Shown in pieces: positions 1 through 5,900 of a DNA stretch of 64,000 nucleotides. The stretch's first letter is position 1. Each line of letters begins with the position of its first letter. Location: assembly GCF_006345805.1 (NCBI RefSeq), contig NC_042997.1, forward strand, positions 175,770,001 to 175,834,000, given 5' to 3'. The position numbers and the translations under genes were made by a program. Under the pieces are notes generated by a model that did not search any database, was not told where the DNA came from, and saw nothing but the letters and a program-made list of their open reading frames with translations. This DNA is from Octopus sinensis (lineage: Eukaryota).

Positions 1-353
1 AAAGGATGAAAGGCAAAGTCAACCCTGATGGAATTTGGACTCAGAACATAATGAACTGGAAAAAATATTGATAGTATTTTGTCCCACACACGAACAATTC
101 TGCCAATTTACTACTTTAAAGATAATAATAATAATGATAATAATAGTTTTAAACTTTGGCACCAAGCCAGCAGTTCCTGGGAGGTTGCAAGTTGATTACA
201 TCAACCTCAGTGTTCAACTGGTACTTATTTTATCAACCCTGAGGATGAAAGTGAAGTCAACCTCAGCAGGATTTGAACTCAGAAAGTAAAGACAGACAAA
301 ATGCTGCTAAGCATTTTGCTGGGTCTGCTAACGATCCTACCAGCTTGCCACCC

Positions 354-387
<34 letters not shown>

Positions 388-498
388 TATGATTTAAAAT
401 TTTGGCACAAGGCAGTCGTCTCGGCAGAATTTGAACTCAAAACATAAAGATGGATGAAATGCTATTGAGCATTTTACCCGACGTGCTAACCACCTTGA

Positions 499-534
<36 letters not shown>

Positions 535-1058
535 CCTTTCTACTATAGGCACAAGGCTTGAAATTTGGAAGGAGGGACTAGTCAATTGCATCGATCCCAG
601 CACTTTATTGGTAGGATGCCCTACCTAACGCTAACCACTTACAGACTGTGATGAGTGCTTTGTATGTGGCACCAGCACCTGTATCAGTTTTGCAGTGGTG
701 GACAGGTCTTCTTGGTTCAGCAAGGCACCAGACATCTCAGTCCTTTGTCATCTTCTAAACTTAAATTACTATTATTATTGCAGTATTATATTCTGAGTTC
801 AACCTGTTCATGTTGACATTGACATTCATCATTCTAAGTGTTGATAAAATGGAGGGCAACTAAATCAATAATATCCTTCCTGCCAAAATTTTTGGTTTTG
901 TGTTTACAGTTGAGATCGTTATTAAAAATAATTTTATTTTCAATTTGTGGCATTTAGTATATCTTCTAAGGACAATATTTTTCAAATAAATTTATCTACC
1001 TGATTTAACAGACAGCTATTTCATCTAATTTATAACCTTTTATTTGTTTCCTTTATAG

Positions 1059-1190
1059 TCATTTACTATACATTCAATACTTATGTTGAACTTAAAAATT
1101 CTGGTAAAGAAAATGATTTTGGTCTCACTCCTGCATTTGCTGGCAACTTTGAGTATTACCTTGGTTTGGAACAGACCTGGTTGGCCGCTG
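1059..1190 (+). CDS. SLC44A2-like: CTL exon (IYYTFNTY...[12 protein letters not shown])
   Basis: tttatAG acceptor, GTGAGT donor; phase 1-1; resembles the CTL 'YL.L.QTWLA' segment. Confidence 0.88.
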
Positions 1191-2942
1191 GTGAGTCTTC
1201 GCTTTTTTTTACATAAAGATGCAATTGTGAATAAATTGTGTATTCTACAACATGCATGCACACACACACAAATATACACACACAGTTGCTTCAATTTAAT
1301 TCATATGCCTGAACAAATTAACTATAAGATTTTCTGTGTAAAATTAATGATTTCAACATGGTTTCAACCTTTTCAACTTACGATCTACAAATGATTTAAA
1401 TTGGAAATTAGTAGACTGCTTCTTTTTTTATTCTTAGGGCTTGGATTTCTTTTAATAGTTGCAAGTTTTTCTACTGATTCACAACATAATGCAACACAAA
1501 AATTAAAATCAGTCCTTCATTATGGACCAAATATATACATTTTCTTTTTTCTCCATTTTTATTTTTCAGGTATCATATGTTCAGTTATATTTGTGGTGTG
1601 TTTGCTTTTGCTGATATTTGTGGCTAAGAAATTGTGCCTTGCCATTGAACTCATTAAAGAAGCAAGTCGGTAAGAGGCAAAGCAGTTTCTATAATTTATT
1701 AATTGTGATATCGAAAACTAGTCATCAATAATGATAATATTCATCAACACAACCATGATGCCTCACATTTGACCCTTTAGCATTCGGATTACCTCTCGGG
1801 GCCGGTGCGCATTGATGCCGTCGAGAGGTAGGCCCCGAAACGGCACGCATTCTCTCCTGATGACCCCATACACTTGCTAGCTTCCAGTATACAGAGCTTT
1901 TAACTGGTAGCACTTGCATGTGCAAGTTGTTTGCAAGACATGTCAAATGTTAGACTTATTTATTCACATTGTTTTGAATTATTCATACATTCAAAATTTT
2001 GATAATGTGATTGCTTCTTTTTAGTGTTGAGTAGGTGTGAGAGGCCAAATCAAGCCAGTTTGAACTGAAAACATGTGGAATATTTTGGCCAGATATGACT
2101 GCCTTAAATGCTAAAGGATAAAAGAAGAAAGCTGGAATTATTACATTCATATGCTCCAAATTGTTAACTGAAACGCATAGCTGACCTGTTCTCCAAATTT
2201 TTGGTGAACTTAGAACAAGTTAATAACAATAATAGTTGTTTTTAACATGGGCACAAGGCCTGAAATATGTGATTGTGGGATTACTGATATTATTGACTCA
2301 ACTGGGCCTTAAGTTTATTGTCTCCAAAGATTGAAAGGCAAAGTTGACTTTGGCAGGGTTTGAACTCAGAATGTAAAGAGCAAGCATGTGTGGCTGTGTG
2401 GTAAGAAGCTTACTTCTCAGCCATATGGTTCCAGGTTCAGTCCCACTGCATGTCATCTTGGGCAAGTGTCTTCTACTAAAGTCTCAGGCCGACCAAAGTT
2501 GAGTGGATCTGGTAGACAGAAACTGAAAGAAGCCTGCCGCGTATATATTTACTCTTTTACTTGTTTCAGTCATTTGACTGCGGCGATGCTGGAGCACCGC
2601 CTTTAGTCGAGCAAATCGACCCCGGGACTTATTCTTTGTAAACCCAGTACTTATTCTATCGGTCTCTTTTGCCGAACCGCTAAGTGACGGGGACGTAAAC
2701 ACACCAGCATCAGTTGTCAAGCAATGCTAGGGGGACAAACACAGACACACATACATATATATATATATATACATATATACGACAGGCTTCTTTCAGTTTC
2801 CGTCTACCAAATCCACTCACAAGGCATTGGTCGGCCCGGGGCTATAGCAGAAGACACTTGTCCAAGATACCACGCAGTGGGACTGAACCCGGAACCATAT
2901 GGTTGGTTAGCAAGCTACTTACCACACAGCCACTCCAACTCG

Positions 2943-2982
<40 letters not shown>

Positions 2983-5900
2983 GTGTGTTGCAAGATTCCT
3001 GTAAAATCATGGTATTGAAATAGTTAATGTATTTTAGAATGGGTTTTTTTTTTTTTTCTTTTGATGGTGCTCCAGCATGGCCGCAGACTGTAAAACAAGT
3101 AAAAAAAAATAAAGCAATAAACACTTTTACAATTCTGCTAGATACTGTTTATTAAGGCAGAATAATATTGTGCTTAGTCAGTAGTGTGCTGACTCACAAT
3201 TTCTCTCATTAATGAAATTTAACCTCTTGAAAAGTGAGAGTGTAGAGGTTAATATTATGTGCAAAAATTGTGAAGGAGAAAAGAGGGGAAGAGGTGGTTA
3301 TGAAGGAATTAATGGAAGAGAAAAGGGAGAAAGGACAGTGAATAGTGTGGTAGGTGATGTGATAGAGCGGGAGAGGGATGGTTAAGTTTGTAGCAAAAGT
3401 CAGGTCAGTTGAAATGGGAGTAAGGTGAAGGGTAGTTAAGGCAGGGTGAAAAAGTGATGAATAAAAGAAATAATGAAATAATACATACCACAAGTAAGGA
3501 GGAGGGAATGAACTAGCAGTCTGGACAAATTGGTGAGGAAAGTAAGGAAGAGAGAGATTGGTCAGAATTGGAAAGAAAAATGCATATCGAAAGCAGTCAG
3601 ATTAATATAGTTTGTAGGAAAAGGGACACTTTGTTGAAGTAAACAAGTGCAAGAACTACGTGTTTTAGCAGCATTGTATATACAATCTTATACACAGTGT
3701 ATGCACAAATTATACACAACAATTAAGATCAAACAGTATACATGTATACATACACACACACATAACATAACATAACTCTAACAAAAGTAGAAAAGAATAT
3801 AAATAGAATGAATATATTTAAAATAGGACAACAGTGTGTTCAGCACAGTATTAGGTGCAGTGTAAGTCTTTAAAAGACTTTGTTTGTATTAAAATCTTCC
3901 GTCTTAGTTTCATATGTAAAAACCTTTAAGTTTTACTCTAAACAGCCAACTTTCATACTCAATGAATGAAAAAGTGATGATTTTTTTATTTACAATCTCT
4001 GAATTTTTTTTTTTTTTTTTCATTATTTTGAGAAATCATCATTATCAGTTAACATCCATCTTCCATGCTGGCAGGGGTTAGAGAGTTTGACTGTGGCATC
4101 AGGCTCCTTGTCTGCTTTGACATGGTTTCTATGGCTGGATGCCCCTCCTAATGCCAACCACTTGCAAGAGTGGAACTGAGGGAAGTGACAGGTTAAAGTA
4201 TAAATAGAAGGCGGCGAGCTGGCAGAATCATTAGCACACCGGGCAAAATGCTTAGCAGTATTTCGTCTGCCGCTACGTTCTGAGTTCAAATTCCGCCGAG
4301 GTTGACTTTGCCTTTCATCCTTTCAGGGTCAATAAATTAAGTACCAGTTTACGCTCTGGGGTCGATATAATCGACTTAATCCCTTTGTCTGTCCTTGTTT
4401 AGCCCCTTGTGGGTAATAAAGAAATAGGTATTTCGTCAGCCATTATGTTCTGAGTTCAAATTCCACCAAGGTCGACTTTGCCTTTCATCCTTTCGGGGTC
4501 AATAAATTAAGTACCAGTTACGCTCTGGGGTCGATATAATCGACTTAATCCCTTTGTCGGTCCTTGTTTGTCCCTTCTATGTTTAGCCCCTTGTGGGCAA
4601 TAAAGAAATAAGAAATAGATGTCATTACTAAAGAGGAGATACTTGGCTACTACAGTAGGAAGACAAATGAGAGAAAGATGGACAGTCAGCATGAGAGAGA
4701 GAAATAGATGGTGTTGGAGATGCATCAGGAGTGTGGGGACCTACCCACAAGGAACAGTGGTTGTGGAAGTATAAGTGGTATAGAGGGGGACAGTAGGGAG
4801 AGTGTAAATGAAACAAAAGTAATTGGAATATTTTGGTAGTACATTGTTATTAGAAAATAATCATATAAGGTTTAAACTGATAATTATATTTCAGTATTAG
4901 TAACAACTCTGTTAGACTACTAACTGCACAACAGTATTTTATTTCATTATGGTTATAAGTTCAACTATATACCCCCACCACTCTAAAAATTAACTTTTTG
5001 TTCACATTCAAAAAAAATTAGTATTTATTTTGCATGAGAGAAATCAGTAAGTAGAGAAGAGGAATTAATTTCATATAAATTATGAAGATACTGTTCTAAG
5101 AATTGAAGAGGAATCTGCTGTGTGTAATTATTATTTTATACCAGATTTCTTCTGCTTAACTTTAATTAAGTCAACTTCCCTGTGGTTTGTTTTCTAGGCT
5201 AGAGTTTATAAATAGGGCAAGCCTTGAAAGGCTCAGTTTGTGGTGACATTTGCCAATGAAATTGAAAGCTAGCAGGGTTCAATAGCATAATTAGGGAATG
5301 CACTAGGTGACATAGGTTCAAATATCATTCTACAATGACTACTCCACTGCCTACCACCACAACTTTATGTCCTGTTTTCCTGCCTATGCAGATCTGTATA
5401 TATTTTCACTGGAAAGCCACTGGTTAACTCCCAAGGAATTGATACTGCAGCAGGATTTTACTTCTCAGTTGATGGAGGTTCTTTCATCTCACTTAAATTG
5501 TTGATATTCATGTGAAAGACATACTGTCACAACTTCACATTTCTTTTTTTCCTAAGATTATATGGCTTTTGTGCCCAGTTACAAAGAAAGCAATATAATA
5601 AACAAATATATTGCTTGAAGATTCATTTGTTATAATTTATATTAACAGTTGAATAGATCTTGTAGTTAAATCATTTAGGTACATCATCATCATCGTTTAA
5701 CATCCATTTTCCATGCTTGCATGGGTTGGATGGTTCGACCAGGTCTGGGAAGCCAGGAGGCTGCACCAGGCTCCAGTCTGATCTGGCAGTGTTTTTACAG
5801 CTGGATGCCCTTCTTAACGCCAACCACTCCGTGAGTGTTGTGGGTGCTTTTTATGTGCCAGGGGAGGCTGGCAACGGCTACAATTGGTTGGTGCTTCTTA

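Follow-up and report, generated by a model that had tools for sequence, protein, structure and literature searches.

The nearest described counterparts of the RNA reported here are the type-SGC ribozymes (HRIMA-1 and a variant), active non-circularly permuted hammerheads discovered by Eckert et al. 2023 (PMC10085705) on metatranscriptome contigs associated with hairpin ribozymes; here and below, what is said of published systems refers to excerpts of the cited texts. In hammerheads of types I to III the core blocks follow the circular order C-G-S, where block C carries CUGAnGA, block G carries GAAA and block S carries the NUH triplet, while type SGC has the order S-G-C with all core bases and an additional, fourth helix by which stem I is linked to stem II. 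Eckert et al. assume that hammerhead blocks cannot be interrupted, and describe the known hammerheads as free of insertions of more than 1-2 nt beside CUGAnGA (PMC10085705). In the excerpts of text and supplement consulted, the supplement mentions neither octopus nor Hero, and retrotransposons occur only in the reference lists of both.

Ribozymes known from R2-group non-LTR retrotransposons are HDV-like and belong to the 5' UTR, and the RNA that carries them is linear and primed at its 3' end (PMC6765202). Within that group, elements of the Hero clade have a single ORF encoding a reverse transcriptase (RT) followed by a restriction-like endonuclease, lack target site specificity and are heavily 5' truncated (PMC3636483, PMC9004415); Hero has been reported in cephalopods and, as the only R2-group clade, in bivalves (PMC10294476). 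Hammerheads are found in the pLTRs of Penelope-like elements, which form partial tandems with a hammerhead near the repeat and an internal start of reverse transcription (PMC11167929, PMC7761336), and in retrozymes, small non-coding elements with type I or III hammerheads; in the cycle proposed for retrozymes the hammerhead cuts the RNA, the product is ligated into a circle, and cDNA of more than unit length is made (PMC7761336). The hammerhead of a Penelope element was dispensable for insertion in vitro (PMC11167929), which, like the rarity of insertions beside CUGAnGA, counts against the reading proposed below.

The sequence described here shares features with each of these systems, and the explanation that we favour is a conserved, non-circularly permuted hammerhead in the 3' UTR of a LINE, likely self-cutting, with the ligated circle as the likely template for reverse transcription. 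The window analysed is a stretch of 64,000 nt of the Octopus sinensis genome (NC_042997.1, positions 175,770,001 to 175,834,000, forward strand), and coordinates are given within it. An earlier note on this DNA had described a GC-rich insert of about 150 bp that splits a MITE. The split is confirmed by the terminal inverted repeats of the MITE, which flank the insert on its two sides (1768-1784 and 2107-2123), and by three empty MITE copies that run uninterrupted across the insertion point, and the extent of the insert is corrected to 144 nt (1798-1941, plus strand), with the left part of the interrupted MITE at 1768-1797 and the right part at 1941-2123, neither of them assigned a strand. The insert lies in sense orientation in an intron, following an exon at 1570-1669 that has AG/GT ends and a weak match, short of the cut-off, to choline transporters (PF04515, E 0.004). 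A search of Rfam with positions 1-5000 of the window (E up to 10) returned no hammerhead and no other relevant family.

Identity to other copies identifies the insert as the last 144 nt, and thus the 5'-truncated 3' UTR, of a 3.63-kb R2-group, Hero-like non-LTR retrotransposon, in agreement with the earlier suggestion of a retrocopy. Searching the 2.7-Gb genome gave 1926 candidates, 39 other places that were scored are 97-100% identical to the insert, and one 22-mer of the element has 725 exact matches. A further 29 copies that were retrieved have a common 3' end and all extend beyond the insert on its upstream side, by different distances, the longer ones reaching an ORF for RT and endonuclease. 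That 3' end is fixed and without poly-A, 53 of 60 genomic copies ending no more than 3 nt from one position. A tRNA-like SINE head and an HDV-like fold had been considered for the insert by eye and were dropped once the upstream ORF appeared.

The 3.63-kb unit has a single ORF with a weak N-terminal C2H2 finger, an RT domain (RVT_1, E 7.9e-7, 29.4 bits, marginally below the 29.6 cut-off), a CCHC-like finger and a PD-(D/E)xK-type end, and its finger and endonuclease-type motifs are conserved. PDB matches of the protein were to R2 proteins only (E 6e-5 to 1e-3), and its 104 homologous matches come from marine metagenomes, Argonauta, oysters, Clytia and fish. The element is an R2-group non-LTR retrotransposon, with one ORF encoding RT and then a restriction-like endonuclease. 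It resembles the Hero clade in this layout, in its lack of target site specificity, in its heavy 5' truncation and in its distribution, which includes the oyster homologues; we call it Hero-like, a tentative label drawn from distribution (PMC3636483, PMC9004415, PMC10294476) rather than from a tree with named HERO references. The Takifugu protein BAC82598, which we take to be HEROFr, is placed among the ribozyme-bearing rows of our protein tree. A related-locus search found no relatives in viral and prokaryote collections. One degenerate pattern match in viral contigs lacked stems when inspected by eye.

The earlier note had located within the insert every part of a hammerhead in a non-canonical order, and all of the motifs that it named are present. 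GGGGCC (1798-1803) is the 5' strand of stem II, from G10.1 onward, and lies apart from CUGAUGA. Block S (1816-1828) consists of TGCCGTC (1816-1822), with the stem III strand and the GUC triplet, and the stem I strand GAGAGG (1823-1828), the predicted cleavage falling between 1822 and 1823. A linker of 2 nt (1829-1830), which tethers stems I and II as had been noted, leads to block G (1831-1845; GGCCCC-GAAA-CGGCA), made up of the 3' strand of stem II, GAAA and the other stem III strand, and the stem I strand with CUGAUGA, the first half of a split block C, follows at 1851-1863 (TCTCTC-CTGATGA) with CCCC directly next to it. The order is S-G-C, which is not that of types I to III, as the note had also recognized. 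To its stems I, II and III, which covary (see below), we add a fourth helix that it had missed, the stem I/II interaction helix (5' strand 1804-1810, partner 1846-1852), which is present in 14 of 14 representatives as a helix of 4-11 bp with differing sequences.

Judged from the window by itself, the stem II strand is separated from CUGAUGA, and the earlier note proposed that the insert was copied from a 66-nt circular or tandem RNA in which the two would be joined, or that it was a one-off template-switch scramble of an ordinary hammerhead. We consider this reading scarcely credible. The joined form CTGATGA-GGGGCC, or a tandem 66-mer, was found nowhere in the genome and in none of 330 loci, the 725 exact copies stand in a LINE context with CCCC next to CUGAUGA, and the block order is conserved in distant relatives. 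The full copies of the element offer another solution. Directly upstream of GGGGCC they have GGGG together with a hairpin of 6 bp. Helix IV is formed by this GGGG and the CCCC that comes next to CUGAUGA, the hairpin forms helix V, and stem II adjoins helix V with zero unpaired bases, giving a gap-free four-way junction between A9 and G10.1. This junction would complete the hammerhead core in the linear monomer of full copies. If helices IV and V stack together and stem II stacks on the core G-A pairs, A9 and G10.1 would come to lie side by side despite being on different strands.

The 3' strands of helix IV (1864-1867) and of an outer closing helix (1873-1880) occupy 1864-1880 and have their partners, like hairpin V, upstream of 1798; both helices have a pair probability of about 0.9 in a full copy. 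Nested folding recovers helices III and IV and the outer helix and cannot display the crossing stems I and II. Since 5' truncation removed the sequence upstream of 1798, the copy in the window lacks helices IV and V of the four-way junction, so the earlier description of it as incomplete stands, and it is probably a weakened or dead relic. Further downstream, hairpin VI (1883-1896; UCC...GGAG), found 13-19 nt past the core in five of the 13 descriptor matches described below, in nearer relatives, is a candidate protein-recognition element. A last hairpin, VII (1912-1927), together with the fixed 3' end defined by mapping 60 copies, makes up 1912-1941, the presumed start point of reverse transcription, 121 nt past the scissile bond. 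In several families the loop side of hairpin V can pair, by eye, with CUGA(U) (L158, 1340-1350, and relatives), a possible off-state of the ribozyme.

A total of 77 metagenomic loci were fetched, and the 40 with a match reaching the end of the ORF, plus one copy of the octopus element, were scanned with a descriptor that allowed gaps at the junction. Thirteen of the 41 matched (12 of the 40 metagenomic loci), in each case behind the ORF and with zero unpaired junction bases, whereas none of 2600 sequences made by dinucleotide shuffling of the first 300 nt did so. By eye, four of the remaining metagenomic loci had the motif with defects and two were cut by contig ends, and the motif was absent from 22 of the 40, three of which have less than 125 nt after the ORF. 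The same architecture occurs in two further families of the octopus genome. These families 2 and 3 (L248-L259, L271-L300 and L239, L301-L330) have GUA triplets and fixed 3' ends, and family 3, with 1678 search candidates, carries a GAAA tetraloop on helix V.

Fourteen representatives, 49-87% identical in RNA to the family in the window, were compared; ribozyme-bearing elements are 34-53% identical in protein. The core bases that define a hammerhead are present as CUGANGA in 13 of the 14, with all four bases at N7, and as GAAAC and GUH in every one, the H being C, A or U and never G. The G10.1-C11.1 pair is found in 13. Each of stems I to III is paired in 69 of 70 cells, helix V in 56 of 56 and helix IV in 55 of 56, its first pair being G-C in seven, A-U in five and G-U in one of the 14, and several pair types occur in every stem. 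Because 12 of the 14 had been picked by a descriptor that demands stems, these proportions are partly by construction, and the variety of pair types carries more weight. An independent MAFFT alignment of six sequences had two-sided changes at 8 of 16 pairs (0 of 500 shuffles); only stems I to III were counted on it since helices IV and V are misregistered there. The pair counts do not include L072, which nearly duplicates L069, or L074, which has a long insertion. On a protein tree of 38 labelled rows, where the label of L244 is that of its family, two changes suffice for the motif compared with a shuffled mean of 12.9, and it may have had a single origin. With the shuffled controls and the covariation of the stems, a chance origin of the core is untenable; we regard the conserved RNA structure as real with near certainty.

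A conserved structure could also be a non-cleaving tail recognized by the protein of the element, with mere likeness to a hammerhead and with the strand after CUGANGA held in helix IV. LINE 3' UTRs bind their own proteins, as established for R2 (PMC6765202), none of the 14 representatives pairs the strand that follows CUGANGA with the one that precedes GAAA, the first pair of an ordinary contiguous stem II failing in all of them, and the literature searched (open PMC and bioRxiv text) contained no described hammerhead with such a junction. Against this, stem II is complete by way of another strand, begins with G-C in 13 of 14 and adjoins a gap-free junction; the positions that vary and those that do not are as catalysis requires (N7 varies freely, G is never found at H17) among elements with proteins 34-53% identical; and 11 genomic copies begin at the predicted bond. 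We therefore consider a recognition tail quite improbable, and the fold itself likely self-cleaves.

The fold resembles type SGC in its order, its core bases and its fourth helix, and the type-SGC interaction helix may come straight after stem III, as it does here (PMC10085705). The linker between stems I and II is 2 nt here and typically 3 nt in type SGC, and unlike the unbroken block of type SGC, block C is split between A9 and G10.1 (PMC10085705). Also peculiar to the present fold is that the stem II and interaction strands lie 5' of block S and that helices IV and V bridge the gap.

If the RNA is cleaved at GUC, some genomic copies should begin at the next G, 121 nt before the 3' end. Of 97 copies sampled by position from the matches to the 22-mer, 16 start at 98-220 nt from the end, four of them at 121-122 nt and none at 98-120 nt (P 0.0015 under a uniform null, a value that overstates the case because other truncation points also recur, 188 and 214 nt three times each and 147 nt twice). 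A pattern search for breaks at the predicted site gave 12 matches, eight of them exact truncations; a control pattern 8 nt upstream gave one match, which was not a truncation. Altogether 11 distinct copies in the genome have their start at the bond predicted to be cut, 121-122 nt from the end, one of which (L356) has a 16-bp target-site duplication ending there, while the 30 best-scoring 3'-end matches include no copy beginning at this site. This class of breakpoints is likely a footprint of cleavage in vivo; a structural stall of the RT could also be a source of such ends. About 96% of copies read through the predicted site, a result to be expected of uncut RNA too.

The copies that extend to the 5' end provide clues to the shape of the template. 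Of 40 matches to the 5' UTR, three are truncated within it and 37 reach its start, and all 37 have the element's own 3' end just upstream, at one precise junction, in pieces of 7-983 nt. These reduce to 23 independent cases after merging a cluster of 14 copies and one pair with a common flank, and 15 of the 23 cross the ribozyme site a second time while none stops there. In one copy (L141) the two units are 99.6% identical and have private variants in common. The distant-family loci L069 and L072 also run from the ribozyme into the start of the ORF; no tandem junction occurs among the listed part of 30 copies each of families 2 and 3. The fourteen clustered copies (L148-L157, L166, L167, L171 and L173, mostly on contig C18) have one 5' breakpoint and the same internal deletions, and since the three tested have more than 1 kb of common flank, they represent a segmental duplication. 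Contigs of 14 sequencing runs guessed to be RNA, a status that is uncertain, cover the stretch, and one of them bridges the 3'-5' junction by 31 letters, which fits a circle and read-through alike.

Since copies end 121 nt past the site, a cut linear monomer can give the short class only, and longer copies need a template that is sealed or uncut. An uncut template is the basis of the alternative in which the ribozyme is active and no circle forms: long read-through transcripts of partial tandems would be copied from an internal start, and cleavage would limit or process a fraction of the RNA. It accounts for the scar-free read-through and for the 121-nt class, and agrees with in vitro work on Penelope, in which RNA that had not been processed was the main substrate (PMC11167929), work which supports internal initiation as well as this alternative. 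However, an uncut read-through template would erode the upstream piece, which could only shrink from parent to daughter, yet it is kept in 37 of 37 copies at 7-983 nt, whereas a circle would rebuild it in every generation. No array of two full units was found among the copies examined, and the common upstream host flank expected under this alternative was seen only in the duplicated cluster and in one pair (three pairs tested). We regard a purely uncut template as improbable, and a circular one, from the arrangement of the copies, as fairly probable.

The RNA might also be cut and left unligated, its paired ends forming a nicked circle, with the RT jumping the nick end to end as the R2 RT can. 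The pseudoknotted stems would keep the ends together, and template switching at that end is apparent in three copies that start at the site: upstream of L340 and L400 lies internal sequence of the element from near position 650, and upstream of L374 an inverted copy of its own tail, as if folded back. End-to-end jumps by the R2 RT usually add bases. For that reason the copies spanning the site count against a nick, as 110 of 119 distinct copies do so, 84 of them exactly, three with deletions and none with an insertion, and the nicked circle seems to us very unlikely.

A ligated circle as template suggests the following cycle. The read-through transcript of a partial-tandem copy would be cut at both ribozymes to a 3.6-kb monomer, whose 5'-OH and cyclic phosphate would be kept paired through the pseudoknotted stems and sealed by the ribozyme or a host ligase. 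The element's protein would nick DNA and begin reverse transcription at the fixed internal point. On cut, unligated RNA this would yield only the 121-nt copy; on circular RNA the RT would pass the sealed site, copy the ORF and be able to exceed one turn, so that the partial tandem is rebuilt each generation. The earlier idea of a circular template would thus fail at the scale of 66 nt and hold at that of the whole 3.6-kb element, where the 5'-complete copies are head to tail. Stated in full, and as a reading towards which we lean slightly, the element would represent a whole clade of autonomous R2-group LINEs, found from molluscs to fish, that replicate through a protein-coding circular RNA. 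Both the cutting and the closing of this RNA would be due to a hammerhead whose topology is not among the six permutations described, since a four-way junction divides its CUGAnGA block.

Such an element differs from the known R2 group in having a hammerhead-type fold in the 3' UTR, no free 5' start, no poly-A and a unit that is apparently circularly continuous (compare PMC6765202). With the Penelope-like elements it has in common the partial tandems, the hammerhead near the repeat and the internal RT start; those elements encode a protein of other descent (GIY-YIG, telomerase-like RT), and their hammerheads are of a minimal type I form that is often dimeric (PMC11167929, PMC7761336), in contrast to the complete permuted core in an R2-group LINE found here. 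The proposed steps of cleavage, ligation and longer-than-unit cDNA are those of retrozymes, which are small and non-coding, unlike this autonomous 3.6-kb unit with its RT ORF (PMC7761336).

No description of such a split-core hammerhead LINE was found in open PMC and bioRxiv text, and Rfam and standard descriptor searches miss the fold despite its hundreds of copies. If our reading is correct, it adds a hammerhead topology that the discoverers of the non-circular permutations had excluded by assumption, and provides the first chromosomal, animal examples of the non-circular order in the literature searched. It would also mean that LINEs can use target priming without a linear template on which synthesis starts from the 3' end, and would allow the long-open role of the hammerhead in elements of the Penelope type to be tested in another lineage, unrelated to them. 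A circular template would account directly for the partial-tandem copies, and a protein of compact, R2-like form with internal priming on an RNA that closes itself would be relevant to RNA-templated gene insertion.

Several of the copies and relatives show additional features. Six internally deleted units of about 0.6-1.5 kb (L147, L160, L161, L164, L165 and L172) keep the 5' UTR and the ribozyme and run for more than one turn, the left breakpoints of five of them lying at 646-829 of the unit; by eye their deletions have no GT-AG ends, and they are candidate non-autonomous mini-circles. On the minus strand of L141 (4955-5617) an open frame begins about 17 nt past the 3'-5' junction, and its first in-frame ATG is absent from L142, so that the ORF may be translated from a non-AUG start, as expected of an uncapped or circular RNA. 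Finally, four relatives without the ribozyme (L076 and L080-L082) have instead a ubiquitin C-terminal hydrolase domain directly after the endonuclease, which in L080 matches PF00443 with an E value of 1.7e-11.
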